Positions 5,670 through 31,204 of a DNA stretch of 44,676 bases are shown piece after piece. Position 1 is the first letter of the stretch, and each line of letters starts with the position of its first letter. The notes beneath the pieces were generated by a model. That model made no database searches and was not told where the DNA came from. It saw only the letters and a program-made list of their open reading frames with translations. The position numbers were made by a program, and so were the translations under genes. The stretch comes from Thermoplasmata archaeon (GTDB lineage Archaea > Thermoplasmatota > Thermoplasmata > Lutacidiplasmatales > UBA184). The stretch covers positions 1 through 44,676 of the forward strand of contig JASHQX010000030.1 in NCBI GenBank assembly GCA_030038895.1, given 5' to 3'.

Positions 5670-5684
5670 GTATTTGAGTTTTTA
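5670..5684 (-). promoter_or_regulatory. A/T-rich TATA-like region upstream of rps8e
   Basis: The minus strand reads TAAAAACTCAAATAC, 36-50 nt upstream of ATG 5634. A GAGG lies 8 nt before the ATG. Confidence 0.3.
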
Positions 5685-6794: not shown

Positions 6795-6797
6795 GGC

Positions 6798-7697: not shown

Positions 7698-7760
7698 GAA
7701 AGGGGCCAGCGGCGGCGGGGTTAAAGAAGGGAGCCGCGGTATGTACGAAAGAGGAGCCCG

Positions 7761-10255: not shown

Positions 10256-10828
10256 CTAGACCATGATCGCGTGGCGCCGACGCATCGAATCTTCGGTCTC
10301 GCCCCGCACCTCGAGCAGCTCGGCGATGATCGCGTCGGTCAGACGAAGACCCGCCGATTCGAAGAGCGTACCGAGGGGCGCGAACGTGAGTCGCTCCGGT
10401 TCGTCGCGGAACTCGATCACGAGGAGGAGCGTCGCGGTATGCGCGAGCTTCGAGCCCGGCCGGCTTGTCAGGACGATCAGTTCGGCTCCCTCACGCCGGA
10501 CGATGTTCGCGGTCTGGATCGACGAGTAGCTCTCGCCCTGGTTCGAGAGGATGAAGACCGCATCCCCGCGGCGGACGATCGGGGTCACGCTCTCGCCGAT
10601 GACGTAGGCGCGCAGCCCGGCCTGGACGAGGCGCATCGCGAACGCGCGTCCGATGATCCCGCTCCGTCCCGCGCCGTAGACGAAGATCTGCGACGCGTTC
10701 GTGAGGATATCGACCGCTCGGTCGATCAGCTTCGGGTCGATCCGCTCGAGCGCGTCCGTCACGCGCTCACCAATGTACCGTTCCGCGCGGACGAAGACCG
10801 AACCGTTAGTGGCGGCGTCCTTGGCCAA
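10256..10828 (-). CDS. SIS-domain protein, 6-phospho-3-hexuloisomerase-like
   Basis: IFVYGAGRSGIIGRAFAMRLVQAGLRAYVIGE...VFILSNQGES. TTG start at 10828; GTG about 10762 is an alternative. Confidence 0.65.
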   Translation of the reverse strand: MAKDAATNGSVFVRAERYIGERVTDALERIDPKLIDRAVDILTNASQIFVYGAGRSGIIGRAFAMRLVQAGLRAYVIGESVTPIVRRGDAVFILSNQGESYSSIQTANIVRREGAELIVLTSRPGSKLAHTATLLLVIEFRDEPERLTFAPLGTLFESAGLRLTDAIIAELLEVRGETEDSMRRRHAIMV

Positions 10829-12026
10829 TCCTTCGCACCTCCTTTCGAGACCGGGACCGAGAGGCCCGCGCGACGAGCGGCCGGGCCAGGCGAACGGGGC
10901 GCTTCGGCGCGGGCCGGGCAGCGGGAGCCGGCCGGCGGGGCGGGACCGGCTTCGGGGGCGGTTTCGCCGCCGGTTTCGCCGCGGGCTTCGCTGAGGGTTT
11001 CGCCGCGGGCGGGGCGTGCTGCTTCGTGTAGCGTCGGGTCAGCGCCCGCTCGTAGAGGAGCTTCATGTACATCGCGTCGTGCTCGAGAAGCGGCGAGCTC
11101 GATATCACCGTCACGTCGTAGTCACGCTCGGCGAGGAGCTCAGCGACCGGGTCGAACCGGACGAGACCGCGCTTGATCGGCGTGAGGCGGAACTCCCCCG
11201 GGCCGTAGAACTCGACCCCGGAGAAGTTGAGGTAGAGCGGGCCGGCGGTCGCCGCGACGAACTGGCGGATCAGTGGCTCGAGCTGGTCGGGGGAATCGAA
11301 CGTCGTCCGCTCGCGCGCGGCGAGGTGCGGCAGGTTGAGGACCGGTACGATCCCCTTCACCCGGCGCGCGAGCTCGAGGACCTCCTCGCGCGAGCCGAAG
11401 ACGTCCGGGTGGCCGCTCGGTTCGACCGCGAGCCGCACCTGACCCTTCGAGGTTCGGTTGAGCCAGTTGGCGAGGTCGCCCGCGATCTCGGTGAGCTCTT
11501 GGATCGAATCGGCGCGCTCGCCCGGACCGAAGAACCCGAGATGCGTGACGGCGAGGCGGGCGCCGAGTCCATCGGCGAGGACCCCGGCCCACTGGATCTG
11601 GCGGGTCGACTGCTCCCGCGCGTCGGCGGAACCGAAAAAGTCCACGTAGTACGGGGCGTGGAGGGTGAGGTCGACGTCGAGCGCGCGCGCGAGGGCCTTC
11701 GTCTGCTGGAGGTCGGCATAGTCTTTCGCGAGGCTCCAGGTAAGGGTCGTCAGCGAGTCGCGTCGCTTGATCGGCGAGGTAAGCGCGGTGAGGGTCGGCT
11801 CTCCACCCTGGTGATCGGCCGGCCCCACGCTCACGACGAGCTGCTGGGCGAGGTCGCGCGAGACGTGGCCGACCTCTTCGTCGAGCGCGAGACGCGTCAG
11901 GGGATTGACTTTGATGAACTGCACCTCCATCGCGGTCAGCCCTAGGTGGTGAACGTCCGCAATTCCATCCCGCAGTGTTCGTCCCTTGCACGAAAGGGGG
12001 ATCCCGGCGGGTCCGAACCGGATCAC
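10806..12026 (-). CDS. Xylose-isomerase-like TIM-barrel protein (endonuclease IV / sugar-phosphate isomerase superfamily) with a basic AKP-repeat tail
   Basis: (M)IRFGPAGIPLSCKGRTLRDGIADVHHLGLTAMEVQF... resembles the archaeal EndoIV-like family. The C-terminal ~70 aa are Lys/Pro/Ala/Arg low complexity. GTG start. Confidence 0.6.
   Translation of the reverse strand: MIRFGPAGIPLSCKGRTLRDGIADVHHLGLTAMEVQFIKVNPLTRLALDEEVGHVSRDLAQQLVVSVGPADHQGGEPTLTALTSPIKRRDSLTTLTWSLAKDYADLQQTKALARALDVDLTLHAPYYVDFFGSADAREQSTRQIQWAGVLADGLGARLAVTHLGFFGPGERADSIQELTEIAGDLANWLNRTSKGQVRLAVEPSGHPDVFGSREEVLELARRVKGIVPVLNLPHLAARERTTFDSPDQLEPLIRQFVAATAGPLYLNFSGVEFYGPGEFRLTPIKRGLVRFDPVAELLAERDYDVTVISSSPLLEHDAMYMKLLYERALTRRYTKQHAPPAAKPSAKPAAKPAAKPPPKPVPPRRPAPAARPAPKRPVRLARPLVARASRSRSRKEVRRIGQGRRH
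10948..11007 (-). repeat. 12-nt tandem repeat (4-5 copies) encoding AKP repeats
   Basis: The + strand reads ggcttcgggggc ggtttcgccgcc ggtttcgccgcg ggcttcgctgag ggtttcgccgcg. It encodes AAKPSAKPAAKPAAKPPPKP in the tail of the 10806..12026 CDS. Confidence 0.85.
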
Positions 12027-13935: not shown

Positions 13936-14871
13936 TCATAGCGGGCCTCGAACCCCCACTCCGAGGAGCGGGGCGTTCGCCGCGATCGCCAAGATTACGA
14001 ACAGTAGGTACGGCCCGGAGTAGATGAATCCCCGCCGCGCCACGCGAGAGCTCACCTCAGTCCAGAGCGGGAGCGTGAGCGCGACGAACCCCGCCCCGAG
14101 CCCGACCAGGGCGAGGAGGACCGGCCAGGCGACCGCCCCGGTCCATCCGAGGAGGAGCGCCGCGGGAACGAGGAGCGCCGCCGAGACGACAACGACCCTT
14201 CCCGAGAGCGCGACATCGTCCATCCGCGGGAGCATCGGGAGGCCCGCGCGCTCGTAGTCGTTCCGGAGCAGGAGCGCAAGGCTCCAGAAGTGCGGGGGAG
14301 TCCAGAGGAAGACAAGGAGCGCGAACGCGAGGACCCCGGGGGTCCAGCTGCCGACGGCCGCGGCCCCTCCGGCGAGCGCGGGGGCGCTCCCGGCAAACCC
14401 GCCGATCACGATGTTCCAGCTCGAGCGGCGCTTGAGCCAGAGGGTGTAGACGACGACGTAGGTGAGCCCGCCGAGGAGGATCGAGAACCCGGTCAGCGGG
14501 TTCAGGAAGACCGTGCCGGCGCCAATCCCGAGGACGAGAAGGGCGAGCCCGAGCGCGAGGACGAGGTCCCCCCGGACGATCCGTTCATCGGGCAGCGGGC
14601 GGTGGCGGGTCCGCTTCATCCGGCGGTCGACGTCCCGGTCGAGGTAGTGGTTGAGCATCGCCGAGCCCGCCGAGGCGGCCGCTCCCGCGCCGACGAGGAT
14701 CGCGAGGCGCACTAGGTCGATCGTGCGGGGATCCGCGAGGAGGAACCCACCCACCGCGACGAGGCAGATGAGGGCGGTGATCCCCGGCTTCGCGAGCTCG
14801 AAGAGGTCCCGGGCGAGGCGTCGGGATGGGAGTTCGGACGCTGCGGCGATGGGTCCGTTGGGAGCGGTCAT
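13936..14871 (-). CDS. ctaB: Protoheme IX farnesyltransferase (heme O synthase)
   Basis: UbiA-family polytopic protein with NHYLDRDVDRRMKRTRHRPLP. Confidence 0.9.
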   Translation of the reverse strand: MTAPNGPIAAASELPSRRLARDLFELAKPGITALICLVAVGGFLLADPRTIDLVRLAILVGAGAAASAGSAMLNHYLDRDVDRRMKRTRHRPLPDERIVRGDLVLALGLALLVLGIGAGTVFLNPLTGFSILLGGLTYVVVYTLWLKRRSSWNIVIGGFAGSAPALAGGAAAVGSWTPGVLAFALLVFLWTPPHFWSLALLLRNDYERAGLPMLPRMDDVALSGRVVVVSAALLVPAALLLGWTGAVAWPVLLALVGLGAGFVALTLPLWTEVSSRVARRGFIYSGPYLLFVILAIAANAPLLGVGVRGPL

Positions 14872-14901
14872 GGGAGCGCCCCGGTCGGGGGAACGGTCCA
14901 G

Positions 14902-15489
14902 CTAGCCATTTCGGGGCTGGCCGAACGGCACCTCCGATTTCGAGGGGGGAACTTCGGGGCGGGGCAGGGCCATGCTCGGTGGGGAGTCGGAGACCTCGCT
15001 GGCCGCGCGGCGGACCCAGGCGACCACACGCGGAGGCAACTCGCGTAGGTTCGCGAGGACCGTAAGGAGGAGAAGGAGTCCGAAGAGCGCGGTCGCGATC
15101 CCGAGGTGGAGGAGGATGAACGGGAGCTCGAGCCCACTCTCGACGACGAGGCCCCCGAGGAGCGCCTCGGTCACGACCAGCGCGAGCGAGCCGAACGAGA
15201 GGCGGAGGAGGACCTTGCGGCCCCGCTCGTAGACGAGCGCGAGCAGCGTTACTACGAGGACCGAGACCGAGAGGAAGAACGCCGCGACGCGGTGGCTCCA
15301 TTCGGCGACCACCCCACCTTGGAACGCGGGAAGGAGGTTCCCGTTCCCGTAGCACGACGGCCAGTCCGGGCACGCGAGTCCGTTCCCGCTCGCCATCACA
15401 TTGCCGCCGAGAAGGATCGTCGTGTAGCAGAGGAGGCACGCCATCGCGGTGGCGACCCGGAAGAGCTCGTGGCCCCGCGTCCGCGCCAT
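14902..15489 (-). CDS. ctaA: Heme A synthase, short 4-helix archaeal type
   Basis: GGNVMASGNGLACPDWPSCYG motif, four hydrophobic helices, His in helices (EWSHRV, ILLHLG). It starts 4 nt after the coxI stop. Confidence 0.8.
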   Translation of the reverse strand: MARTRGHELFRVATAMACLLCYTTILLGGNVMASGNGLACPDWPSCYGNGNLLPAFQGGVVAEWSHRVAAFFLSVSVLVVTLLALVYERGRKVLLRLSFGSLALVVTEALLGGLVVESGLELPFILLHLGIATALFGLLLLLTVLANLRELPPRVVAWVRRAASEVSDSPPSMALPRPEVPPSKSEVPFGQPRNG

Positions 15490-15493
15490 CGGA

Positions 15494-17170
15494 CTACGGC
15501 GCCTCCGTCGGGGTCGCGGTCGGCAACGGGACCGGGACGCGCGCGGGTGCCGGAGCGGCGACCGGCCCGGTCATCTTGACCGAGAGCTCCTCGCCCCACG
15601 GGTCCGGGACCGTGACCGGCTCCCCCCCGTAGTAACTATAGACCATGTTGAACAGGAAGACGAGCTGCCCGATCCCGAGGACGTACGCCCCGAGGGTCGA
15701 GAGGAAGTTGAGCGCCTGGAAGTTCCCGTTCCAGAGATACGTGTAGACCCGGCGGGGCATCCCCTCCGCGCCGAGGATGAACATCGGGAACAGGAGGACG
15801 TTGGTCCCGACGTACGTCATCAAGAAGTGGATCTGGGCGAGCCGCTGGTTGTACCAGCGGCGCGTGATGATCGGGAAATAGAAGTAGATCCCGGCGAAGA
15901 GCGCCATGAGGGTCCCGCCGAGCAGGATGTAGTGGAAGTGCGCCACGACGAAGTACGTGCCGTGGTAGAGGTAGTCGATCGGGATCGACGCGAGCATGAG
16001 GCCGGAGAGGCCGCCGATGACGAAGCCGGTGATGAACGCGACGCAGAACCACATCGGGATCGCCATCCAGACGCGGCCCCCCCACAGGGTCGCGACCCAG
16101 TTGAACGTCTTGACCGCCGACGGGACGGCGATCGCCATCGTCGCGAGCATGAAGACGAACCGGATGTTCGTCGAGATTCCCGTGACGAACATGTGGTGCT
16201 CCCAGACCGCGAAGCTGAGCACCGCGAAGACGCCGAGCGCGATCGCCATCGCGCCGTAGCCGAAGATGTCCTTGCGCGCGAGCTTCGGGAGGATCGTCGA
16301 GACGAGACCGAAGGCCGGCAGCACCATGATGTAGACCTCGGGGTGCGCGAAGAACCAGAAGATGTTCTGGTAGAGCAGCGCGCCGCCGAGCGGAGTGCCG
16401 TTGACCGCGGCGAGGATGTGCGTCCCGAACACGCGGTCGCTCAAGACGAACGTGAGCGCGATCGAGAGGGACGGGAGCGCGAAGATGAGGAGGACCGAGT
16501 TGATCAGGATCGACCAGACGAAGAGCGGCATGTTCCAGTAGTGCACGCCCGGGGCCCGGTGCTTGGTGATCGTGACGAGGAAGTTGATCGCCCCGAGCAT
16601 CGAGGAGACCGTGAGGATGTGTAGGCCGAGGACCCACAGGTCGATCCCGTCCCCCGGGATCTGAACGGAGAGCGGGACGTAGCCGGTCCAGCCGGCGTTA
16701 GCGTTCGAGAGGATCAGGATGACCCCGGCCGGCGGGAGCATCCAGAACGCGATCGCGTTGATCCGCGGGAGCGCCATCTCCCGCGAGCCGATCATCGACG
16801 GGACGAGGAAGTTGCCGAAGCCGGCGAGGACCGGCATGATGAACATGAAGATCATCAGGACCCCGTGCATCGTGAACAGGGTCGAGTAGACGTCCGGGGT
16901 GATCCCAAGGGTCGTCTGGGGGTCGAGGCCGAGGCCCTGCACGAACCCGAGATCCGTCCGGATGAGGGTCGCGTAGATCCCGCCGATGAAGAAGAAGACG
17001 ATCCCGGTGACGATGTACATGATCCCGATCCGCTTGTGATCGGTTGTGAACATCCACGTCTTCATCGTGCGGACGAGCCACGTCCCCTGGTAGGTGAACA
17101 GGTAGACGAGGAACGAGGCGAGCGCGACGATGAGGCTCACTTCGACCACGGGGACCGTGACGTTGGTCAT
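15494..17170 (-). CDS. coxA: Heme-copper oxidase subunit I
   Basis: [14 protein letters not shown]..., [40 protein letters not shown] lies 7 nt before the ATG. Confidence 0.95.
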
Positions 17171-17183
17171 CGCATCCTCCCGG

Positions 17184-17564
17184 TCATCCCGCGATAAGAC
17201 CCCCTAGTATGTACGCGATCGCGGCCGCGGCGATCACGACGATGAGGATCCGGAGGAACCGCGCCTCGGCCTCCTCCGTGATAGGCCCGGGCGGCGTCGG
17301 CTTGAACTTCCGTCCGAGCGGCCACGACCGGTAGGTTCGGTCCACGATGTGTACGATCAGCGCGGCCATCAGAAACATGAGCGCGACCGCGATCCCGAAC
17401 GACTCCTGGGCACCGGGGCTCGTGATCGGCCCGAGCCGGACAGCGTAGACGATCAGCACCGCGATCCCGAGGAGCATCAGGACAGTGACGGCGGTGTAGA
17501 GGTCCAGCACCCGCTCGCGCGCCGCGCGCACGTCCGAGGGAAGGGCGGGGGCGGGGCTACTCAA
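17184..17564 (-). CDS. Membrane protein (about 126 aa, 3 predicted helices), unassigned respiratory-operon component
   Basis: Three hydrophobic segments. TTG start overlapping the upstream stop by 8 nt (GTG starts further in are possible). Confidence 0.55.
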
Positions 17565-17820
17565 AGAGCTCTACCCTCCGCTGGTTCGCGCCCCGGTATC
17601 GGTCGACCCGATAGAGGATCCCGGCGATGAACAGGAATGCGAGGAAGGCCATGGTCCCCCCCGCGGTGGCCACCAGGAGGTACCAGAGGTTCCCGGCGGC
17701 CGCGCCGAGGATGCCGTAGACGAACGTCGCACCGCCCGCGGTCCCGACGATGAGGAAGCCGAGAAGGACTCCCCAGAGGGAGGTGGTGTTCCACTTCGGC
17801 GATGCGGGGGGGCTATTCAC
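17557..17820 (-). CDS. Small membrane protein (about 87 aa, 2 helices), unassigned
   Basis: GTG 17820 overlaps the cytochrome b stop (GTGAATAG). The sequence is WGVLLGFLIVGTAGGATFVYGILGAAAGNLWYLLVATAGGTMAFLAFLFIAGILY. The track start at 17883 would overlap cytochrome b by 70 nt. Confidence 0.5.
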   Translation of the reverse strand: MNSPPASPKWNTTSLWGVLLGFLIVGTAGGATFVYGILGAAAGNLWYLLVATAGGTMAFLAFLFIAGILYRVDRYRGANQRRVELFE

Positions 17821-19162
17821 TGGACTTGACCTCCGACGCCCCGACCGGGGCGGCTGGCGCCGCGGTTGGGAGTGCGTACACACCGAGGAACGGCGTCCCG
17901 CGCGCGGCGAGCCGTTTGAGGTAGTTGCGGCGGTACCGCCAGTAGAAGAGCGCGACCGCGATCCCGGTCACAAGGAAGAGGGGCCCGAGCGTCTCGGCGA
18001 CGAGCATCGGGGCGATCTGCACCCCCGGCGTCTCGCCGCCCCAGACGGTCATCAGAACGAAGAACTCGAGGAAGGACGTAGCGAGCCAGATGAAGAACGG
18101 CCGGTCCCGCGGGTGGGTCCGCTTCGAGCGATCGAGGTACGGCAGGAACAGGAAGTACAGGATCAGGACCGTCGTCACGCCGATCGCGAGGACGGGGGTC
18201 ACGTACTGGAAGTCAACGAACTTGAACAGCCAGAGGAAGTACCAGTCTGGCTCGGTCACGACGCCCGCGGCCGCGAGGTTCCCGACGTACGTGGGAAGGC
18301 TCCACGGCCAGAGCGCCGCAATCCCGAGTAGGAGCCCGACGTAGAGAAGCCCCCACTTCGTAATGTACCAGAAAATGTGGGGCATGAACGGGACGTGGGA
18401 CTTGTCCTCCTTCTCGTTGTACCGCCGACGCTGGGTCGGGTCCGAGGTCGCCGGCGGCGCGATCCCGTGCGACTCGAACAACGCAATGTGAGCGTAGAGG
18501 AGGGCCGCGAGACCGAGCGGGATCAGGAGGACGTGCGCATCGAACATCCGGGAGAGGAGCCCCTGCGCCGTTCCATCCGCGAGGATGAACGGCCCGAGGA
18601 GCGGGCCGATGGTGGGGAGGCGCAGCGCGAGGACAATCCCGACGTTCGTCGCGTTGTAGGAGAGCTGGGTGTACGGAAGGAGGTAGCCGGTGAACCCCAT
18701 CCCGAGGGTCAGGATCATGAGGAGCGTCCCGACCATCCAGGAGAACTCGCGTGGCGCCTTGTACACCCCGAGGTAGTACCCACGGAAGAAGTGGACGAAC
18801 ATGAGAAAGATCATCGCGTAGGCGCCGTAGAGGTGGCTTGTGAGGAGGAGCGAACCCATCGGAACGGAGTGGAGGATGTAGTAGGTCGAGCACCACGCCG
18901 CCGGCGCTGCCGAGTACGCCCCGACGGGCTGTCCGCACGCGGTGAGGGTCGGGGCGGTGCTTGGTTGGTAATAAAGGAGGAGAAGCGCGCCCGAGACGAC
19001 CTGGTAGAGGAACGCGTTCACGACGAACGCGCCGGTCCAGTACGAGGGCTTGAACGTGAACTCCGGCTGCGGGCGGAGCGCCCACTTCTTCATCGAGGTC
19101 CGGTCCTCGACAAAACCCCAGATGCGGTTCAGCGTCCGATTGTACCAGTTCGAGAACCCCAT
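17813..19162 (-). CDS. Cytochrome b (fused b6/subunit IV-like) of a bc-type complex
   Basis: 449 aa and polytopic, with an N-terminus typical of archaeal SoxC/SoxN-like cytochrome b (YWTGAFVVNAFLYQVVSGALLLLYY...). It starts 10 nt after the Rieske stop, with a GGAG in between. Confidence 0.8.
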   Translation of the reverse strand: MGFSNWYNRTLNRIWGFVEDRTSMKKWALRPQPEFTFKPSYWTGAFVVNAFLYQVVSGALLLLYYQPSTAPTLTACGQPVGAYSAAPAAWCSTYYILHSVPMGSLLLTSHLYGAYAMIFLMFVHFFRGYYLGVYKAPREFSWMVGTLLMILTLGMGFTGYLLPYTQLSYNATNVGIVLALRLPTIGPLLGPFILADGTAQGLLSRMFDAHVLLIPLGLAALLYAHIALFESHGIAPPATSDPTQRRRYNEKEDKSHVPFMPHIFWYITKWGLLYVGLLLGIAALWPWSLPTYVGNLAAAGVVTEPDWYFLWLFKFVDFQYVTPVLAIGVTTVLILYFLFLPYLDRSKRTHPRDRPFFIWLATSFLEFFVLMTVWGGETPGVQIAPMLVAETLGPLFLVTGIAVALFYWRYRRNYLKRLAARGTPFLGVYALPTAAPAAPVGASEVKSSE

Positions 19163-19172
19163 CGCCGGACTC

Positions 19173-20000
19173 CTACGTCGGGAAGTTGCACAGGATGACC
19201 GGCGTCTCTTTCACGAGCTGCGAGGTCGCGCCGACCCCGTAGTCGCCCTGAAGGGTGTTGAGGTGCCCATTGACCGGCGGGCTCCCGGGACGCATCCCAT
19301 TCGCGAAGATGTTCCCGGCCGCGTCCGTTTCGAGGAGCACCTGCGGGAGCGGGAGCACGGCCGGCCCGGTCAGGTTCGCGGCCGAGTTCGTGACATCGTA
19401 GGTCGACCCGTGGCACGAGCAGTGGATGTAGAAGGTGTGGCCGCCCGGCGTTTCGGGGCACGTACCGGGCGGATAGAACGCGATCGCGGGTGCGGGGCAC
19501 CCCAGGTGCTGGCAGATCGCGCTGTAGGCGACGATCGACTGGTGCGTCCCGATCCCGTACGGGACGTTCTCGGCGCCGTTCGAGCCGTTCGGCGTCCCGC
19601 TCGCCGGGTAGAGATTGAGTAGGAAGTTCGGCTCGTTCTCGAGCGGGTAGTAAAACAGGTAGAGCTCGCTCGTCTCGACGTTGTACTCGCTCTCGACCTT
19701 CGCGACCGTGAGGGGACTACCGTCGGTGTCGATCAACTGGACCTTGGGATAGCTCGAGATCCCGATCGTGGGGGGCTGGACGAACTGGAGCGTCCCCCCG
19801 ATCAATCCGCCCGCCCCGGCGCCGACGAGGCCGGCGACCGCGAGCAGCTTCAAGACGTTGCGCTTCGTTTCGTCGACCTCCTCGCCGCCGTTCGAGGGCA
19901 GGGAGGCGACCCGCCGAATCCGGCCGACAGGAAAATCGAACCGGGACGAGCGGAACGACGCCATCGGGCAGGTCGCGGCGCAGGCCGGGAAGTTCGGCAT
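19173..20000 (-). CDS. Rieske 2Fe-2S protein
   Basis: Box I CQHLGC and box II CSCHGS. KRNVLKLLAVAGLVGAG is a signal-anchor with a Tat-like KR motif. ATG 20000 overlaps the upstream stop (TGATG). Confidence 0.9.
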   Translation of the reverse strand: MPNFPACAATCPMASFRSSRFDFPVGRIRRVASLPSNGGEEVDETKRNVLKLLAVAGLVGAGAGGLIGGTLQFVQPPTIGISSYPKVQLIDTDGSPLTVAKVESEYNVETSELYLFYYPLENEPNFLLNLYPASGTPNGSNGAENVPYGIGTHQSIVAYSAICQHLGCPAPAIAFYPPGTCPETPGGHTFYIHCSCHGSTYDVTNSAANLTGPAVLPLPQVLLETDAAGNIFANGMRPGSPPVNGHLNTLQGDYGVGATSQLVKETPVILCNFPT

Positions 20001-20185
20001 CACAGCGTCCTCCCCGAGGTCTCGGGCCGGGCGTCGTCGACGCCTTCGGGCGAAGGGACCCGGGCGTCGCCGGGAAGCTCGGCGTTTTCGCTCCCGCGAT
20101 AGACCGCCCAGGTGATCCCGATCCCCATCAGCACGACGAGGATCTCCGTGAGTGTGACGATCTGGTCCGGTGAAAGGCCGCTCAT
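20000..20185 (-). CDS. Small (61 aa) single-pass membrane protein, unassigned
   Basis: MSGLSPDQIVTLTEILVVLMGIGITWAVYRG... ATGA overlap with the upstream gene. The track ORF (to 20488) is an Arg/Pro-rich extension. Confidence 0.5.
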   Translation of the reverse strand: MSGLSPDQIVTLTEILVVLMGIGITWAVYRGSENAELPGDARVPSPEGVDDARPETSGRTL

Positions 20186-21846: not shown

Positions 21847-22890
21847 TCAGGCGGCCTCGATCAGGACGGTTTCGCTCCCGGCGGCGACCGCCCGGTCGAT
21901 CGCGAGCTCGGCGAGGAGCGAGAGGCACCCCACGCTGCGGGGCAGCCACTGCAGGGTCGAGCGGGACGTCACGCTGCTGGATGTGCGGCGGCCCTTGACG
22001 ACGGTCGTGGCCAGCGTTTCCGAAAAGGAGGTGTTCTGTTGGTACACTTCGCAGGCGTGATCGAGCGAGGGGTGCATCAGCGCTTCCATCACCGCCTTCA
22101 GGTGGCCCTTCATCTCGGGGACGTGGGTCGTGAGCGAATCCCGGACCTCGGCCGGAAGCTTCGGGGCCTCCTCGTAGAGCACCCCGAGCGCCTCGCCGAA
22201 CAGCTGGGCCAGCTCCTCGAGCGCATGGACCGCGACCCGCCACTCGAGAAGCTGGCGCGGGTCAGGGCTGCCGATCCGTCGCGCGAGTGCCCAGTCCCGG
22301 CTCGCGAGGAAGAGCTGGCGGACCAGGAGCGCGAGGACCTTGTTCGCCTCCTCCTCGAGCGTCGCGAGTCGACGGTTGCGCGAGGTGCGCTGGACGATCG
22401 ACTCCATCTCCTCGAGGAACGCGATCAAGATCATCTTCATCCGCTGGACGAGCTGGGGGAGCCCGTACTTCGACGGATCGATGAAGTTCTGAAGGACCAT
22501 CCGGTTCGACTCCTGGGCGACCACGGATACTCCGAGGAGACCGCGAGCCGCTCCGAGGACCTCCTCGACCCGGTCCGGGGCGAGGGGCATGTCCGTGCGT
22601 ACTTCGATCGCGTCGTGCCCGACTCGGTACGCGCCGACGATGAGGCGCTCAAGGACCCCCGGAGTGTCGAACGCGCGGGCTTGTACGAGAAACGGAGCTC
22701 CCGAGGAAGCGGCTCCAGGAACGGGCGCGGGCTTGAGGTAGAGGGCGCCGTCGTCGTTCTGGTCAAAGACGATGAGGTCACCGGGCCGAAGGTTCATCGC
22801 CTCGGCCCACGGTTTCGGCAACGTGACCGCGATCGATGAATGGCCCGCTTTCAGCACCCGTCGCTCCCGATTCGGCGTCCCCCAAGCCAT
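21847..22890 (-). CDS. AbrB/SpoVT-domain + PhoU-domain regulator (archaeal PhoU-like)
   Basis: The N-terminal RVLKAGHSSIAVTLPKPWAEAMNLRPGDLIVF is a SpoVT/AbrB swapped-hairpin motif. The remainder is all-helical with PhoU-like repeats. ATG 22890. Confidence 0.7.
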   Translation of the reverse strand: MAWGTPNRERRVLKAGHSSIAVTLPKPWAEAMNLRPGDLIVFDQNDDGALYLKPAPVPGAASSGAPFLVQARAFDTPGVLERLIVGAYRVGHDAIEVRTDMPLAPDRVEEVLGAARGLLGVSVVAQESNRMVLQNFIDPSKYGLPQLVQRMKMILIAFLEEMESIVQRTSRNRRLATLEEEANKVLALLVRQLFLASRDWALARRIGSPDPRQLLEWRVAVHALEELAQLFGEALGVLYEEAPKLPAEVRDSLTTHVPEMKGHLKAVMEALMHPSLDHACEVYQQNTSFSETLATTVVKGRRTSSSVTSRSTLQWLPRSVGCLSLLAELAIDRAVAAGSETVLIEAA

Positions 22891-22903
22891 CCGAGTTCCC
22901 CCC

Positions 22904-22927
22904 AACCTACTACAAGGTTCGTAGGTT
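22904..22927. promoter_or_regulatory. Inverted repeat AACCTAC-N10-GTAGGTT in the AT-rich promoter region of the AbrB-PhoU gene
   Basis: Perfect 7-nt arms. It lies 14-37 nt upstream of ATG 22890, next to GTTAAAC (a TATA-like box on the minus strand). It contains TTCGTAGG, one mismatch from the TTCGTACG element. Confidence 0.4.
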
Positions 22928-23850: not shown

Positions 23851-24078
23851 ATGCGCCTTCGCCGGGGTCTCGAGCGTATCCGAGCCTCGCTTCGCCCGGC
23901 CGGTCTCGCCGTGGCCGGCGGGTTTCTATTCGCGTCCTCGAACCTCCAGGAGACGAACGATCTGGTCTGGACGATGGTCGCGATCGGGGTCGCGGGCTCG
24001 ATCGTGACGTTTTCCTTCCTCGTCTACTCGATCTGGCGATTCCGCGACCCCAAGGCGAAGGGACGGCGGCATGGTTAA
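23851..24078 (+). CDS. Oxidase subunit II, N-terminal fragment (TM1)
   Basis: MRLRRGLERIRASLRPAGLAVAGGFLF...LVWTMVAIGVAGSIVTFSFLVYSIWRFRDPKAKGRRHG*. It ends where the HxN..E..WT loop motif of CoxII begins. Confidence 0.6.
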   Translation: MRLRRGLERIRASLRPAGLAVAGGFLFASSNLQETNDLVWTMVAIGVAGSIVTFSFLVYSIWRFRDPKAKGRRHG

Positions 24079-24532
24079 CAAGTACGAGGTTGCCTGGACG
24101 CTCGCGGTCGTCGCGCTCATCGCCGGGGTCAGCGTGTACTCCACAATCCTGCTCTACCAGCTCGACCAGCTTCCGGGCGATCCGACCGAATACGTCGACG
24201 TCACCGGCCACCAGTGGTACTGGGAGTTCTGCTACCCGGTGAACAACACGTGCTTCAACTCGAGCTACGACGCATCGACGAACACCGTCAGCGGCGGGGC
24301 GTTATGGGCGTCCCCGGGCGCGGAGCTCCAGATCAACGTTACGGGCGCGGACGTGATCCACTCATTCAACATCCCACAGCTCGGCGTGCGGATCGACGCG
24401 ATCCCCGGCCGGATGAACCACTTTGCCTTCCAGGTCCCCACCGTCGCAGCGGGAACCAGCTACCTGATCCAGTGCACCGAATTCTGCGGCGAGTTTCACG
24501 GAACGATGCGCTCGTTCCTCATCGTGACCTGA
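24071..24532 (+). CDS. coxB: Oxidase subunit II, TM2 + CuA cupredoxin domain
   Basis: MVNKYEVAWTLAVVALIAG..., GHQWYWEF, VIHSFNIPQLG, and the CuA site CTEFCGEFHGTM. Its ATG overlaps the stop of the preceding fragment (ATGGTTAA). Confidence 0.85.
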   Translation: MVNKYEVAWTLAVVALIAGVSVYSTILLYQLDQLPGDPTEYVDVTGHQWYWEFCYPVNNTCFNSSYDASTNTVSGGALWASPGAELQINVTGADVIHSFNIPQLGVRIDAIPGRMNHFAFQVPTVAAGTSYLIQCTEFCGEFHGTMRSFLIVT

Positions 24533-24588
24533 GCGGTGCCGCGCGGGTCCTCTCTCCCCCGACGGGATCGGCGGTAATCCCGGTGGCC

Positions 24589-25620
24589 TCAGGAGTGGCC
24601 ACCGTGTCCACCGGCGCGCCCTCTACGGGGGAAGCGACCAGTGAACGATGCGATAACCGCGAGGAGGACCCCGATCACGAGAAGCCCGCCGGACCCGGCG
24701 AGTACCCAGGTCTCGACGACCGCGGTGCTAGGGGGCGCCGGCGGGGCCGGGACCGGCACGTTGACGTAGAGGAGCCCGTCCATGCCGCTAGCGAAGTGCC
24801 CGGGGACCTCGCAGATGTACTGGTAGACGCCCGGAGCGGCGAGCGTAAAGTTCGCCCAGACGGAGCTGCCGGCTCCCGCCGGCACCGTCGCGGAGACGAG
24901 AGGGGGGTGGGCGGTGAAGTACGAAGTGAAGTTGGTGGGAGAGAGCGTATAGTTCGACTGAGCGGCGAGTGTGAACGTGTGCCCGAAACTCCCCATGTTC
25001 GTCACTAGGACGTCGACCGACTCGGGGAAGTGGGGCGCGGTGACCGCGAGCTCGTTCGGAACGAACTGGAGGGAGTCGGTCGTGGTCTCGTTGAGCCGGA
25101 CCCCTGGACCCGAGAACGTGACGTTGAGGAACCCGAACATTCCGGCTTGGAACTGGAACGGTACGAGCGAGACGAACTCGAACGAGTCGCCGCCGACCGA
25201 CGCGTTGAGCGAGATGTTCGCGTACGCCTGCTGGCCCGGGGCGACCGAGACGTTCGCGAGCGAGCCGTTTTTGGCGAAGAACGACGAGAGCTCCGCCGGG
25301 GTCCAGGAGGTGTTGAGAATGACCCCCGGGACCTTCGAAACGGTGAACGTGTGGTTGTAGTGGCCGAGGTTATCGAGGTGGACGGTGAGGGTCGAGTTCG
25401 TGGCACCGACGAGCGAGCGGGGCACGAACCGCGGCGTGTCGGTCATGTTTACCGTGACGGTCGAATTGCGGCTCAGGGGGCGGGCGAGCCCGACCGATGG
25501 TGCGGAGGGCAGGTGCGTGATCGCCGCCGCGACGGGAAGGGCCAGCGTCGCAAGGAGCAGGCCCGCGGCCAGCCATGGAGCCGCGCGACGCCACGGTCCG
25601 GGATGTCGGGCCTGGCGCAA
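24589..25620 (-). CDS. Two-domain cupredoxin (degenerate N-domain, intact type-1 Cu C-domain), membrane anchored, sequon-rich
   Basis: Domain 2 has GHTF...YICEVPGHFASGMDG. Domain 1 has NHTF...FVSLVPFQFQAGMFG (Cys to Ser, His to Gln). A C-terminal helix is present. TTG start, preceded by AAGGGGGA. Confidence 0.75.
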   Translation of the reverse strand: MRQARHPGPWRRAAPWLAAGLLLATLALPVAAAITHLPSAPSVGLARPLSRNSTVTVNMTDTPRFVPRSLVGATNSTLTVHLDNLGHYNHTFTVSKVPGVILNTSWTPAELSSFFAKNGSLANVSVAPGQQAYANISLNASVGGDSFEFVSLVPFQFQAGMFGFLNVTFSGPGVRLNETTTDSLQFVPNELAVTAPHFPESVDVLVTNMGSFGHTFTLAAQSNYTLSPTNFTSYFTAHPPLVSATVPAGAGSSVWANFTLAAPGVYQYICEVPGHFASGMDGLLYVNVPVPAPPAPPSTAVVETWVLAGSGGLLVIGVLLAVIASFTGRFPRRGRAGGHGGHS

Positions 25621-26770: not shown

Positions 26771-27613
26771 CTACGGCTCCCCGGACGACTTGCCCGTAAC
26801 CCCCGCGTCGAACCGGCGGATGAGCTGCGTCGTCACCTCGACCAGCGGGTGATGGCTCGTACGGTCGATCTCGATGTCCGAGACCGTGGAGAGATGGTGC
26901 TCGCGTGCGAGGCGCTCGAAGCCGGTCTCGAGGTCGGCGAACTCGTGCGGTCGGTCGCACCTCAGGATGAACGCCTGGAGCTGCGTCAGGCCCATCTCGC
27001 GCGCCGCGAGCGCCCGGTGGTGCCCGTCGACGAGGATCCAGGCATCCCCCTTCTGGAGGACGAGGACCGGCTCGGCGAACCCCCGCTCGATCTCGTAGCG
27101 GCGACCCTCGAGCTCGTCCTCGAAGACCTTCCACTGGGTCGGGGTCAACCGGTCGATCGGGACGAGACCGCGGTGGAATGAGAACGGAAGCCCGTACCGC
27201 TCGCTCAATAGGTGCTTTAGCGTGTCCGCCTTCACCGGCGACGCGCGCTCGAAATGCGAGCGGACGACGTCGATGTTGGCGAGCATCCCGCAGAGGCGGC
27301 CGTCCGCGTCGACGATGGGGAGGTCGCGCAGGCCGAACCGGAACATCACCCGCGCCGCATCGTCGAGCGCGGTATCGGGGGCCGCGGTAATCGTCCCCGG
27401 TCGGATAATCTTCGTGAGGGGGGTCTCGCCCTCCGCTGCGTGGCGGAGGAGCTCCTTCGCGCTGACGAAGCCGACCAGCTTCCCCCGTGCGTCGGTCACG
27501 GGCAGTCCGTGGTGGCGGCTGCGCATCAGGCGGGCGGTCGCCTCGCCTACGGTCGCGGTGTCGCGGACGTGCTCGACCTCGAGCACCATGTAGTCGCGGA
27601 CTCGGACGCTCAT
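26771..27613 (-). CDS. CBS-pair + ParB/Srx-like domain fusion protein
   Basis: Two CBS motifs (HHGLPVTDARGKLVGFVSAKELL; LRDLPIVDADGRLCGMLANIDVV) are followed by ...IDRLTPTQ...PVLVLQKGDAWILVDGHHRALAAREMG (ParB/sulfiredoxin-type DGHHR). ATGA overlap with gmhA. Confidence 0.7.
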   Translation of the reverse strand: MSVRVRDYMVLEVEHVRDTATVGEATARLMRSRHHGLPVTDARGKLVGFVSAKELLRHAAEGETPLTKIIRPGTITAAPDTALDDAARVMFRFGLRDLPIVDADGRLCGMLANIDVVRSHFERASPVKADTLKHLLSERYGLPFSFHRGLVPIDRLTPTQWKVFEDELEGRRYEIERGFAEPVLVLQKGDAWILVDGHHRALAAREMGLTQLQAFILRCDRPHEFADLETGFERLAREHHLSTVSDIEIDRTSHHPLVEVTTQLIRRFDAGVTGKSSGEP

Positions 27614-28215
27614 CGGGGCGGGGCGGGCTGCTCGTCGCGCAGGTACGTGGTGAGCATGTGGCAAACGATCAGATGGAGGTCCTCGGTGTGCTGCATGCTC
27701 TGGGACGGCACGACCACGGGGATGTCAACGAGGTCCTTCAGTTTCCCACCGCCCATCCCCGTGAGGCCGATTGTCGAGAGTCCCATCTCGCGAGCCGTGC
27801 GGACCCCCTCGAGGACGTTCGGGGAGTTCCCGCTCCCCGAGATCGCGACCGCGACGTCCCCCTTCTCCGCGAGCGCGCGCAAGGGACCCGCGAAGACCTT
27901 CGAGTAATCGGTGTCGTTCGCCCAGGCGGTGAGCCCCGGGGTGTTGTCGTTGAGCGCGACGCACTTGAAGCGACCCCCTTTCCCGCGCGGCTCGGTCCCT
28001 CCCGCGACCTTCGCGATGTCGGTGACGAAGTGGGAGGCGGTCGACGCGCTGCCGCCATTGCCGAAGAAGAAGATCGTCCGGTCCTCCGACCGGGCCCGGA
28101 GGAGTATCGGAACGATCCGTTCCATCGCCGAAAGGAGGTAGGGGGCCTCGAGCGTTGCCTCGGCCTCGCGGACGTACCGCTCGACGAACGGCTTCAGGGT
28201 CGAAAGGTCGCTCAT
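27610..28215 (-). CDS. gmhA: SIS-domain phosphoheptose isomerase (GmhA family)
   Basis: IFFFGNGGSASTASHF..., VAVAISGSGNSPNV, LTGMGGGKL, VPSQSMQHTEDLHL. ATG 28215 overlaps the kinase stop (ATGA). Confidence 0.75.
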   Translation of the reverse strand: MSDLSTLKPFVERYVREAEATLEAPYLLSAMERIVPILLRARSEDRTIFFFGNGGSASTASHFVTDIAKVAGGTEPRGKGGRFKCVALNDNTPGLTAWANDTDYSKVFAGPLRALAEKGDVAVAISGSGNSPNVLEGVRTAREMGLSTIGLTGMGGGKLKDLVDIPVVVPSQSMQHTEDLHLIVCHMLTTYLRDEQPAPPR

Positions 28216-29189
28216 CGTCCCACGAACAGGATTCGAGACCCCTCGGGCGTGATCCGCACGGAGAGGCGCCGCATCGGCGACAAGGCGTCCGCTATTTGAC
28301 GGCTCTGCTCGGGCGGGTGGAGGAGGAGGAGGAACCCTCCGCCCCCCGCGCCGGTGATCTTTCCGCCCCACGCGCCGGCGGCGCGCGCCGCGGCGTACTG
28401 CTGGTCGATCGTATCGTTCGAGATCCCATTTGATAATCCGCGCTTCAATCGCCACCCTTCGTCGAGGACGCCGCCGAGGCGTTCCCAGGAACGCGAGGCG
28501 ATGGCGTCGCGGGCGACCGATGCGAGTTCGCGCATCCGCGTGAGCGATTCCCGGTTGACCTCGGTCCGCGCGCTCTGCTGCTTCAGGATCCCTTCTGCGC
28601 GCCGCGTGACACCGGTATAGAAGAGCGACAAATGGTCGCTCAGCGCCTCGCGGTCCGCGGTCGAGAGAGGGATTGGAGCGACCCGGACCGTATCGTCCGG
28701 ACGGAACTCGAAGTACTGAACCCCTCCGAACGCAGCGATGTACTGGTCCTGCTTACCCAGCGTCCCTTTGAGGCGGTCGATCTCGATCCGGCACGCCTCC
28801 TCGGCGAGCTCAGCCGGGTCCTTGAGCTGACCGCGGTACGCGGCGAGTGCGTTGAGCAGCCCCACGGTCACGGTTGACGACGACCCGATGCCCGTCCCCT
28901 CCCCGGGGATGTCGGCGATCGTATGGATCTCGATCGAGTCATGAACGCCGGCGCTACGGAGTGCCTCCCGAACGAGCTCGTTATGGAGCTCCTCGATGTG
29001 GTCGACGTTCTCGGTCCGAGAATACGCCACGCGGATCGAACTGTCGAACTTCTTGTTCACCAGGACGTGGATGTACCGATCGATCGCGGCGTTCGTTACC
29101 GCACCGCCGCCGTACGTGCGGTAGAACGATGGGAGGTCCGTCCCCCCGCCCGCGAAGCTGATCCTGAGCGGGGTGCGGGTGATGATCAT
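28212..29189 (-). CDS. hddA: GHMP-family sugar kinase, D-glycero-D-manno-heptose 7-phosphate kinase (HddA)-like
   Basis: MIITRTPLRISFAGGGTDLPSFY..., GHMP motif IPGEGTGIGSSSTVTVGLLNAL, KITGAGGGGFLLL. Confidence 0.7.
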   Translation of the reverse strand: MIITRTPLRISFAGGGTDLPSFYRTYGGGAVTNAAIDRYIHVLVNKKFDSSIRVAYSRTENVDHIEELHNELVREALRSAGVHDSIEIHTIADIPGEGTGIGSSSTVTVGLLNALAAYRGQLKDPAELAEEACRIEIDRLKGTLGKQDQYIAAFGGVQYFEFRPDDTVRVAPIPLSTADREALSDHLSLFYTGVTRRAEGILKQQSARTEVNRESLTRMRELASVARDAIASRSWERLGGVLDEGWRLKRGLSNGISNDTIDQQYAAARAAGAWGGKITGAGGGGFLLLLHPPEQSRQIADALSPMRRLSVRITPEGSRILFVGR

Positions 29190-29215
29190 CACGCGAAGAG
29201 CGTCGGTCGGCCCTC

Positions 29216-31204
29216 TTAGGTTTTTTCCCTAGAGGGACTTGCCTCGCCGGCCGCCGGAGAACCCGAAACCGGCCGGGTCGAGGGGGACCAGCGGGCCCGG
29301 CGGCCGTAGAACTCGGCCGTGAACCGGGCGAGGTTCTCGATCGGCGTGAGGCCGGGGAGGCTCGAGGCGAACGAAGTGGCCCGCCGGTCGAGGATGATCG
29401 CGATTCCTCGGTCATTTTCGGACCGGATCATCCGGCCGCACGCCTGGAGGATCGACCGCTGGGCGGGGGCCTCGACGGTGTACTGCCAACCACGCCCCGT
29501 TGTCGCATCCAGGAACCTACGGAGAGCCTCCCGCTTCGCGGTCGGCCGGGGGTACGGGATCCCGACGAGGACGACCGCCTCGAGCTCCTCGTCGGGGTAA
29601 TCGATCCCCTCCGCGAGGCGGCCACCGGCGACCCCGAGGAGGATCGTCCCCTCCGGGTCCTTCTTCCATCCCTCGATCGAACGCCAGAGATCCCCGGTCG
29701 GCATCTTGCTGTACTCGATGAAGACGTTCCCGGGGAGTTGCGAGTGGAGCCCCGCTTCGAGGACGCGCTGCAAGAGATCGAAGCTCGGGAAGAAGACCGC
29801 CGTCTTCACCGGAAGGGTCTGGAGGACCTCCACAAGGCGATCCGAGAGCCGGGCGATCGCCCGGGGGTCCCCCCGGAGCTCTTCGAAGCGAGTCGTCACG
29901 CTCGGATCGTAGAGGAACCGCCGGTTCTCCGCCGGGAAGTGCGACGGCACGTCGAGGAGCCGGGTCTCCGGGCCGAGACCGAGGGAGTCGCGGTACTCCT
30001 CGAGCGGGGCGAGGGTCCCGGAAAGGTGGACGGAGAGGTGGCAGTCGAGGACCGGGCGGGCCGGCCCCGAGGCGTCCAACGCGTACGCCTCGAGCGCGGG
30101 GCGCGGCAGCCGCGTCGCGACCTTGACGTACGCCGGGGGCTCGAGCTGGGGCCAGGAGAGCAGCGTGAGCGCGACCGTGTGAACCCACGAGCGGGGGAGC
30201 CGGCGCTCGCGCCGTCGCTCGTCGCGCAGGTTCTCCCCCCACGTGGCGAGCGCGCCGAGCCAGGTGTCGAGCCGGTGGGAGGTTCCGCCGAGCGCGGTCA
30301 GGAGGGCCTCCTCGAAAACCGACGGGGGAAGGACCGCGTCGTCGTCGCGCGCGAGGGCGTGGATCAGCTCCTCGACGGCCGCGCCGACGAGATCGAGGAA
30401 CCGACTCGCGCTCGGTCCGTCAGGAAGCTGGAAATCCCCCCGCTCGGCAATCTCCGCCCGGGCCCGCCGCACCGAGTCCTGCGGGAGCGCGACCGTGGTG
30501 AGCTCGCGAAGGTGGTTCGGAAGGTTGTGCGCTTCGTCGATGACGAGGTCGATCCGGTCGGGGGCGATGCGCATCCAGTCGAACAGGGACCGACGGATGT
30601 GCGGGTGGAAAAAGAACGCGTACGGCGCGGTGACGACGCGAGCGTCGGGCAGGAGTCGTTTCGCGAGCTCGTAGGCACAGAGGTTCTCCTCCCGGGCGTA
30701 CGACTCGAACTCGTGCGGTGTGGGAAGCTTCGACCGGAGCCGCTCCGTGAGGCTGTCGAGGTCTGCTTGGAGCACCCGCGCATAGTAGGGGCACCCGTCC
30801 AGGTCGGCGAGGTCGATCTCCCCTCCCTCGGGGAGGTCAGGCGAGGGGGGGACCGGCGCCTCGCCGCGCATCGCTTGCTCGGTCGCCCGCTTGCGATCCG
30901 CGCACAGTTTGCCATGCTCCTCCGCCGTCGCGCCCTTGATCTCCGCGACGTTTTCGAGGAGGAAGCACCGCCGGGCGCGCCCGGCGAGTCCCACAGCGAG
31001 GACCGGATGGGAGAGTCGGTGGCTGATCGCCCGCGTCTCCTGGAGGACCTGGACCTCCTGAGAGTGCGTCCGCACGAGATAGAGAATCTTGTGATCCGCC
31101 AGCTCGGCGTGCTCGAGCAGTGGGGCAAGAACGGCGACCGTCTTGCCGCTGCCCGTGGGAGCGTTGACGAGAAGCGGGCCCCCCCGTGCGGCGATCGTCC
31201 CCAC
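29216..31204 (-). CDS. xpd: XPD/Rad3-family 4Fe-4S DNA helicase
   Basis: Walker A NAPTGSGKT, DEAH (VIDEAHNL), and four Cys of the FeS domain (RRCFLL, KLCADR, DGCPYY, NLCAYE). The conserved frame continues upstream of GTG 31204 with no canonical start (see findings). Confidence 0.85.
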   Translation of the reverse strand: MGTIAARGGPLLVNAPTGSGKTVAVLAPLLEHAELADHKILYLVRTHSQEVQVLQETRAISHRLSHPVLAVGLAGRARRCFLLENVAEIKGATAEEHGKLCADRKRATEQAMRGEAPVPPSPDLPEGGEIDLADLDGCPYYARVLQADLDSLTERLRSKLPTPHEFESYAREENLCAYELAKRLLPDARVVTAPYAFFFHPHIRRSLFDWMRIAPDRIDLVIDEAHNLPNHLRELTTVALPQDSVRRARAEIAERGDFQLPDGPSASRFLDLVGAAVEELIHALARDDDAVLPPSVFEEALLTALGGTSHRLDTWLGALATWGENLRDERRRERRLPRSWVHTVALTLLSWPQLEPPAYVKVATRLPRPALEAYALDASGPARPVLDCHLSVHLSGTLAPLEEYRDSLGLGPETRLLDVPSHFPAENRRFLYDPSVTTRFEELRGDPRAIARLSDRLVEVLQTLPVKTAVFFPSFDLLQRVLEAGLHSQLPGNVFIEYSKMPTGDLWRSIEGWKKDPEGTILLGVAGGRLAEGIDYPDEELEAVVLVGIPYPRPTAKREALRRFLDATTGRGWQYTVEAPAQRSILQACGRMIRSENDRGIAIILDRRATSFASSLPGLTPIENLARFTAEFYGRRARWSPSTRPVSGSPAAGEASPSREKT

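Follow-up and report, generated by a model that had tools for sequence, protein, structure and literature searches.

An HddA-like kinase gene, a GmhA-like isomerase gene, and a CBS-ParBc gene as neighbors in one clade of uncultured Thermoplasmata

The GDP-D-glycero-alpha-D-manno-heptose pathway is known from bacterial S-layer and capsule gene clusters, where it comprises GmhA, HddA, GmhB, and HddC (Burkholderia WcbL, Campylobacter HddA), and adjacent genes of the HddA and GmhA families are typical of heptose clusters. In the KpsF/GutQ arabinose-5-phosphate isomerases, the SIS domain is fused to a CBS pair. The ParB/sulfiredoxin (Srx) fold is known from ParB, Noc, and PadC, from sulfiredoxin, whose motif is G-C-H-R with a catalytic Cys, and from the free serine kinases SerK of Thermococcus and SbnI of Staphylococcus. 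The window studied here is the whole 44,676-nucleotide stretch of contig JASHQX010000030.1 (assembly GCA_030038895.1, Thermoplasmata archaeon). Its minus strand carries four co-directional genes, coding for an XPD/Rad3-type helicase (xpd), a GHMP kinase, an SIS isomerase, and a protein with two CBS domains and a ParB-like domain (CBS-ParB); the last three are referred to as the triad. The block is probably a lineage-specific mixed operon, in which a probable sugar-phosphate isomerase/kinase pair is accompanied by an independent member of the family that NCBI names “CBS pair associated ParBc domain-containing protein” (CBS-ParBc), the name given to the homologue P0447 of Methanobrevibacter ruminantium.

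The block is opened by xpd at 29216..31204 (Pfam DEAD_2, HBB, and Helicase_C_2; TIGR00604 rad3, 218 bits), which ends with TAA at 29218-29216. The HddA-like GHMP sugar kinase follows at 28212..29189, with the domains GHMP_kinases_N and GHMP_kinases_C and 325 amino acids from the ATG at 29189. A GTG at 29192 lies in frame ahead of this ATG, which is likely the true start because the orthologues begin MII(T/S)RTPL. An earlier, sequence-only reading of this DNA had placed the triad 23 nucleotides downstream of xpd; that distance holds to the GTG, whereas to the ATG, which it gave as the end, the spacing is 26 nucleotides. The two ATGA overlaps that it described were confirmed by direct reading of the sequence. 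The kinase stop TGA shares 28212..28215 with the start ATG of the GmhA-like SIS-domain sugar-phosphate isomerase (27610..28215, 201 amino acids; SIS_2, 56 bits, and SIS), and the stop TGA of the latter shares 27610..27613 with the start ATG of CBS-ParB (26771..27613, 280 amino acids, two CBS domains and a ParB/Srx fold). Gaps of 0 to 13 nucleotides between unrelated genes are common in the window, and these two were the only 4-nucleotide ATGA overlaps among its approximately 30 same-strand junctions. They exceed chance packing.

The G+C content of the window is 66 to 70%, and the proteins nearest to its own come from uncultured Thermoplasmata metagenome-assembled genomes (MAGs). The source clade is one of uncultured high-GC Thermoplasmata, with the MAG UBA184 among its members.

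Linkage of the CBS-ParB gene inside and outside the clade

Genes in the high-GC related loci were called on the basis of G+C at third codon positions. The genes xpd, kinase, SIS, and CBS-ParB were adjacent in about 50 in-clade loci, with CBS-ParB 63 to 87% identical, and xpd lay upstream of the kinase in nearly every one. However, the same loci also retained mdh, a ferredoxin gene (fer4), a cupredoxin gene, cox2, a MazE-domain gene, and tatC, so the triad was conserved no better than the surrounding ∼12 kb. Synteny was found to break in L046 and L049, the most divergent in-clade members. In L049, xpd, kinase, and SIS remained together and CBS-ParB lay 4 kb downstream, and in L046, CBS-ParB was present with xpd, kinase, and SIS all absent within 6 kb. 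In the MAG JAJYWS01 (locus L048, 4968-6837), the kinase and CBS-ParB genes were 55 nucleotides apart, and an intervening SIS gene was missing; the isomerase gene has been lost or relocated there, the other two staying adjacent. The in-clade linkage is explained by descent.

The overlaps themselves were well retained. The junction between SIS and CBS-ParB was an overlap of −4 or −1 in 44/47 related in-clade loci, and that between kinase and SIS was −4 in 29/47, the remainder having gaps of up to 14 nucleotides save one. Among in-clade loci of greater divergence, CBS-ParB was conserved at a level equal to or above that of xpd, kinase, and SIS (in L042, identities of 68% compared with 56, 59, and 53%, respectively), as would fit a core protein with constraints of its own.

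Linkage was examined, both within and beyond the clade, by tblastn searches of every retrieved locus with the three window proteins XPD, kinase, and SIS. The 39 out-of-clade CBS-ParBc loci came from Methanomassiliicoccales, Altiarchaeales, Methanoperedens, Syntrophoarchaeum, Methanobrevibacter-type genomes, and others. Identity to the window CBS-ParB was mostly 36 to 50% over the C-terminal domain, and 43 to 48% over the full length in 26 genome loci. A homologue of the kinase, SIS, or xpd was found near CBS-ParBc in none of the 39 (within 5 to 6 kb, E values up to 1e-3). The sequence-only reading had proposed that CBS-ParB takes the place of missing heptose pathway enzymes, and it had named as a test the conservation of CBS-ParB with gmhA- and hddA-like genes in other archaea. 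That linkage proved to be confined to one clade, to be broken in L046 and L049, and to mirror the regional synteny where it occurs, and the proposed replacement is not supported.

The 39 loci spanned at least eight different gene contexts. CBS-ParBc was found between gatB and hisE; after purQ and ahead of SRP19 and a THUMP methyltransferase gene, with 4-nucleotide overlaps (L094:569-3379); between DUF123 (which we take to be a GIY-YIG-type family) and an SDR gene followed by SufBD; and behind a histone-deacetylase-family gene, with a phosphoenolpyruvate synthase gene convergent. In another context, a MoxR/DUF58 operon was divergent, with PcrB or a histone-fold gene downstream. In Methanoperedens and Syntrophoarchaeum, the neighbor was a convergent regulator gene coding for an HrcA-type winged-helix domain and CBS domains. 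CBS-ParBc thus recurs in tightly packed operons among unrelated housekeeping genes, and because the purQ string also has 4-nucleotide overlaps, translational coupling of CBS-ParB to unrelated genes is not specific to the window.

The convergent regulator was the sole CBS-ParB neighbor common to two named genera. At L083:6816-7691 and L085:6804-7688, its gene, coding for a winged-helix (HrcA/Rrf2-type) plus CBS protein of ∼291 to 294 amino acids, is overlapped by the 3′ end of CBS-ParB.

The family as a whole was compact: when the C-terminal domain was used in an exhaustive search, E values of <1e-10 were obtained for 37 clusters at 50% identity, and clustering at 90% identity gave 1,393 to 1,694 clusters. 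In data with one genome per species, at least 542 matches to CBS-ParBc were confirmed; this genome search used an 8-sequence alignment, and invariant residues were taken from a 22-sequence alignment. Most full-length representatives had ∼240 to 280 amino acids, the ParB-like domain beginning near residue 120 to 155. The sources included Methanoperedens, Syntrophoarchaeum, Methanobrevibacter ruminantium, Methanomassiliicoccales, and Altiarchaeales, and the window CBS-ParB aligned over its full length with members from several euryarchaeal orders. The CBS pair and ParBc family is therefore widespread in Euryarchaeota and strongly conserved, with a predicted invariant nucleotide pocket of the SerK or ParB kind, and its function is uncharacterized.

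Some homologues departed from the usual architecture. P0137 (346 amino acids) has a C-terminal 70-residue segment rich in Lys, Ala, and Thr (…KKGAKKPSAGKTGSKKTVAKKTAVKK…), like basic nucleic-acid-binding tails. The ParB-like domain occurs twice in P0122 (512 amino acids, two stretches) and is also present in very long proteins, P0176 (4,638 amino acids, four stretches) and P0193 (2,072 amino acids). Since all three carry such a domain, the DGHHR-type domain also serves other architectures.

Predicted properties of the three proteins

In the CBS-ParB protein, residues ∼1 to 125 (27239..27613) form a CBS pair, or Bateman module (Pfam CBS, E value of 4e-19, two stretches). Foldseek matches of the full-length model to this half were CBS pairs only, those of CBSX1, CBSX2, MJ0100, and AcuB. 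The second CBS domain keeps the G-x-x-(S/T)-x-x-D motif, and G109, D115, and R118 are invariant. The KpsF/GutQ model TIGR00393 matched the CBS region marginally (E value of 0.0034), more weakly than generic CBS models such as IMPDH.

Residues ∼126 to 250 (26864..27238) were assigned to the ParB/Srx fold by AlphaFold2 model, Foldseek, and profile search. With Pfam, the C-terminal half scored 17.2 bits for ParBc_2, below the gathering score of 23.6, and some homologues have a precomputed PF02195 match that is marked weak. The domain was modeled separately with AlphaFold at a predicted local distance difference test score (pLDDT) of 91.4, and the model matched ParB/Srx-fold structures with a Foldseek probability of 1.0: Atu1540 (2hwj), ParB and Noc CTPase domains, PadC, the pNOB8 ParB N domain, sulfiredoxin, SerK, and SbnI, at E values of 1e-5 to 1e-3 and TM scores of 0.4 to 0.5. 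A profile of the domain searched against PDB sequences gave ParB 4umk (1.3e-5), Spo0J 6sdk (7e-4), and SerK 5x0j (1.2e-3). The sequence-only reading had been right in seeing two CBS motifs fused to a ParB/Srx-type domain; it had also suggested seeking the closest characterized relatives of the domain by profile and structure, and the matches obtained in this way include Atu1540, ParB/Spo0J, Noc, PadC, SerK, and SbnI. A fusion of a CBS pair to a predicted ParB/Srx domain is thus supported.

Across 22 diverse members, the invariant residues were P158-T159-Q160 (27134..27142), R171, E174, E181, and D196-G197-H198-H199-R200 (27014..27028), the last motif being the predicted phosphate-binding loop. 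DGHHR is identical in SerK and aligned with the GERR of ParB, and Q160 fell on the Gln of the NPyQPR box in ParB and, in SerK, on position 30, the catalytic Glu. No helix-turn-helix (HTH) or other DNA-binding domain was detected in the protein. Only ∼60 residues follow the ParB/Srx core, and a SerK-like C-terminal substrate-binding domain is not present.

For the kinase, the top NCBIfam match was HddA (NF049969), with 154 bits over residues 1 to 303, below the 600 required by the equivalog cutoff; the runner-up families were fucokinase (98 bits) and mevalonate kinase (81 bits). The best PDB sequence matches were WcbL and HddA (4usm, 4n3o, and 3k85), with E values of ∼1e-38. At least 95% of 50 kinase orthologues keep both GHMP motifs, PgEGTGiGSSS and GAGGGGF. 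Among the matches listed in the homologue search, all were in-clade, with identities of at least 77%. Assignment as a putative HddA-like GHMP kinase is supported by these comparisons.

The isomerase likewise fell below both equivalog cutoffs for phosphoheptose isomerase, with 110 bits compared with 276 for NF010546 and 104 compared with 209 for TIGR00441. The DiaA model scored lower, at 67 bits, and among PDB sequences, GmhA chains (1e-25 to 1e-19) came ahead of DiaA (7e-18). His62, Asp66, Glu178, and His186 aligned with His64, Glu68, Gln175, and His183 of Burkholderia pseudomallei GmhA, presumably its zinc-binding and catalytic residues, so that two metal/catalytic residues of GmhA, Glu and Gln, are replaced by Asp and Glu in the isomerase. 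Each of the four is kept in at least 95% of 49 isomerase orthologues, and in the same alignment, the phosphate loop ISGSGNS is intact (S-x-S-G-x-S type). The protein is taken to be a putative GmhA-like SIS enzyme, an assignment that these matches support. A DiaA-like nonenzymatic SIS protein was also considered and was ruled out, since scores were higher with the GmhA models and since the clade has fixed residues at the catalytic site and in the phosphate loop.

With motifs and catalytic residues fixed in the clade, the kinase and isomerase are read as probable active enzymes of a divergent subfamily. Their substrate is insecure because both lie far under the equivalog cutoffs. The sequence-only reading had taken them for the first two steps of activated heptose synthesis; HddA and GmhA did prove to be the best families, whereas the scores of both proteins are well below those required for equivalogs. 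Formation of heptose-7-phosphate followed by phosphorylation at C1 is the best-supported reaction for the pair and would be the best guess. With its altered metal site, this divergent GmhA/HddA pair hints at the chemistry of heptose or a related seven-carbon sugar in wall-less soil archaea.

Competing explanations for the block

In the mixed operon considered probable here, xpd, kinase, isomerase, and CBS-ParBc would form a co-transcribed block in one Thermoplasmata clade, the kinase and isomerase acting as a functional pair and CBS-ParBc being a local copy of a widespread family rather than a pathway enzyme. Judged by family membership, the GmhA-like SIS enzyme would convert a ketose phosphate, most likely sedoheptulose-7-phosphate, to the aldose D-glycero-D-manno-heptose-7-phosphate, and the HddA-like GHMP kinase would then add a phosphate at C1. 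Genes for the phosphatase and nucleotidyltransferase steps would be expected elsewhere in the genome. CBS-ParBc would most likely be a dimeric switch, resembling PadC or the ParB N domain rather than a SerK-type kinase. Its CBS pair would respond to an adenosyl ligand, as suggested by the conserved G-x-x-S/T-x-x-D motif, and a nucleotide would occupy the DGHHR and PTQ pocket of its ParB/Srx domain, which would perhaps hydrolyze it or transfer from it. Because the family is found elsewhere in other mixed housekeeping operons, the place of CBS-ParBc behind the isomerase would reflect one ancestral rearrangement and genome compaction. Read in this way, the block no longer calls for a new heptose pathway, a prediction that was attractive but unsupported.

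Several points weigh against this account. Retention of the overlap between SIS and CBS-ParBc in 44/47 loci could be compatible with selection for stoichiometric co-expression. The out-of-clade genomes might carry the kinase and isomerase beyond the 5- to 10-kb flanks examined. Neither a solved structure nor an assigned function is known for any CBS-ParBc protein. Finally, the sub-cutoff scores, together with the Asp and Glu that replace Glu and Gln in the isomerase, leave the heptose assignment a best guess.

The last point leads to a somewhat unlikely alternative, that the kinase and isomerase belong to a divergent archaeal subfamily acting on another sugar phosphate, with no heptose phosphates made. 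It draws on the distance from the cutoffs (HddA, 154 compared with 600; GmhA, 104 compared with 209) and on the alteration, fixed in the clade, of two of the four GmhA metal/catalytic positions (Glu to Asp and Gln to Glu). Those substitutions are conservative, however, and still compatible with metal binding; by full-length alignment, HddA and GmhA are clearly the top families, fucokinase (98 bits) and DiaA (67 bits) coming next, and adjacency of the two families is what heptose clusters typically display. A regulatory role for the third gene product has been weighed as well. SIS-CBS fusions exist in KpsF/GutQ, and in a clade-specific regulatory coupling of this kind, CBS-ParBc would bind the isomerase or kinase and gate sugar-phosphate flux by adenylate or S-adenosylmethionine (SAM), as a two-gene equivalent of KpsF/GutQ. 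The −4 or −1 overlap in 44/47 loci and the TIGR00393 match (E value of 0.0034) would fit such a role, as would the adenosyl ligands bound by the matched CBS structures (AMP, ADP, or ATP in AcuB; SAM or methylthioadenosine in MJ0100). It is rather improbable, since the same family with the same invariant residues lacks an adjacent SIS gene in 39/39 out-of-clade loci, the KpsF match is weaker than generic ones such as IMPDH, L048 has CBS-ParBc without SIS while L046 and L049 separate them, and 4-nucleotide overlaps with unrelated genes occur elsewhere in the family. Quite improbable, too, is a DNA- or chromatin-associated nucleotide sensor with xpd as its meaningful neighbor, the kinase and isomerase being there incidentally. 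The closest folds include the CTPase domains of ParB and Noc, several contexts have DNA or chromatin neighbors (xpd, the histone-fold gene, DUF123, and the histone-deacetylase-family gene), and P0137 has its long lysine-rich tail. Nevertheless, no HTH or other DNA-binding domain was detected, xpd in L049 stays with the kinase and SIS rather than with CBS-ParBc, and many contexts (gatB/hisE, purQ/SRP19, and SufBD) have no DNA theme, the sample of contexts being small. The DNA-related alternative involving xpd is weakly founded.

Substitution for the missing heptose enzymes was the central proposal of the sequence-only reading. As it had stated, the window lacks GmhB and HddC: no HddC-like NTP-transferase or GmhB-like HAD phosphatase domain was found in ∼45 scanned open reading frames (ORFs) of the 44.7 kb. 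CBS-ParBc would then be a ligand-regulated, nucleotide-dependent enzyme acting on the heptose phosphate, a nonorthologous substitute for GmhB and/or HddC. Besides that absence and the tight gene coupling, small-molecule kinases occur in the ParB/Srx fold, SerK has the exact DGHHR (profile E value of 1.2e-3), and SerK and SbnI are structural matches. Yet gmhA, gmhB, hldE, and hldD are unlinked in Escherichia coli, and unlinked gmhB and promiscuous archaeal sugar-1-phosphate nucleotidyltransferases are common, so the missing genes are not evidence of replacement. The linkage, moreover, is limited to one clade and does not rise above background synteny, the family occurs in many lineages and unrelated contexts, the catalytic Glu30 of SerK is an invariant Gln here, and the ∼60 residues after the core leave the SerK C-terminal substrate domain missing. 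Substitution is therefore highly unlikely; if true, a CBS-ParB heptose enzyme would be a new ParB/Srx-fold activity and provide a new archaeal route to activated heptoses. A broader version would make CBS-ParBc a conserved euryarchaeal adenylate-gated enzyme or switch with a SerK-like DGHHR pocket, recruited in this clade onto the isomerase/kinase product and either completing a noncanonical heptose-phosphate route or linking sugar-phosphate metabolism to XPD-dependent DNA transactions; it is very unlikely. A candidate of another kind, anti-phage defense, was ruled out for the triad by the PADLOC defense models, which gave no significant match for the kinase, SIS, or CBS-ParB proteins; with xpd, there was a generic DinG-like match only.

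Other genes of the window and comparison with known systems

The surroundings of the block are housekeeping and respiratory genes, including those for the PolD small subunit, PGK, MDH, TatC, a terminal oxidase, and cytochrome b/Rieske. A set of genes for aerobic respiration lies at 13936-20003 (minus strand) and 24071-25620; it is syntenic clade-wide and includes a UbiA-family prenyltransferase (heme O synthase-like), a CtaA-like protein, COX1, cytochrome b, Rieske, and COX2, together with a cupredoxin/multicopper-like protein of 343 amino acids. Another sugar-phosphate isomerase pair, unrelated to the triad, lies on the minus strand, where a second SIS protein (PF01380 type, 190 amino acids; 10256-10828) overlaps by 23 nucleotides with a xylose-isomerase-like TIM-barrel protein (AP_endonuc_2; 10806-12026). 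At 5682-8369 (minus strand), a glucose-dehydrogenase-type gene (Glu_dehyd_C) adjoins a gene of the dihydrodipicolinate synthase/2-keto-3-deoxygluconate aldolase family, a pair suggestive of a nonphosphorylative Entner-Doudoroff-type route; the true start of the aldolase gene, called as an ORF of 523 amino acids, is probably later. A 352-amino-acid protein at 21847-22905 (minus strand) has an N-terminal MazE/AbrB-type (SpoVT-AbrB) domain and no family match over the rest, and its synteny is kept throughout the clade.

Compared with the GDP-heptose pathway, the block shares a GmhA-like SIS gene adjoining an HddA-like GHMP gene, with exactly these families as the best sequence and PDB matches. 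It differs in having neither GmhB nor HddC in the window, in the sub-equivalog scores of both proteins, and in the isomerase Asp and Glu at the positions of Glu68 and Gln175, and its neighbors are housekeeping rather than glycan genes. In KpsF/GutQ, a single protein holds SIS and CBS pair, whereas here the two follow each other in two coupled genes, the SIS domain is of the GmhA type, and the CBS pair is part of another protein, one with a ParB/Srx domain and a distribution of its own.

That protein matches no characterized ParB/Srx subfamily, whether ParB clamp, SerK/SbnI, or Srx. With SerK (5x0b/5x0j) and SbnI (5ujd), it shares the fold and the DGHHR phosphate-binding motif (Foldseek E value of 7e-4), but it has an invariant Gln in place of the SerK catalytic Glu30 and a CBS pair instead of their C-terminal substrate-binding domain. 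ParB, Noc, and PadC gave the best profile matches and were among the best structural ones, with Arg200 aligned to the second Arg of GERR; in contrast to ParB, DGHHR replaces GERRxR, HTH and C-terminal dimerization domains are lacking, and TM scores are 0.4 to 0.5. Where sulfiredoxin has its catalytic Cys, His198 is found (G-H-H-R). To the family named by NCBI, on the other hand, the likeness is close, with the same architecture, ∼260 to 280 amino acids, 36 to 50% C-domain identity, and the motifs PTQ, GRxYE, AEP, and DGHHR. The window protein is a member of this CBS pair and ParBc family, and only its gene context is particular to the clade. The block therefore consists of known kinds, namely, divergent HddA-like and GmhA-like enzymes and a member of a known, uncharacterized family.

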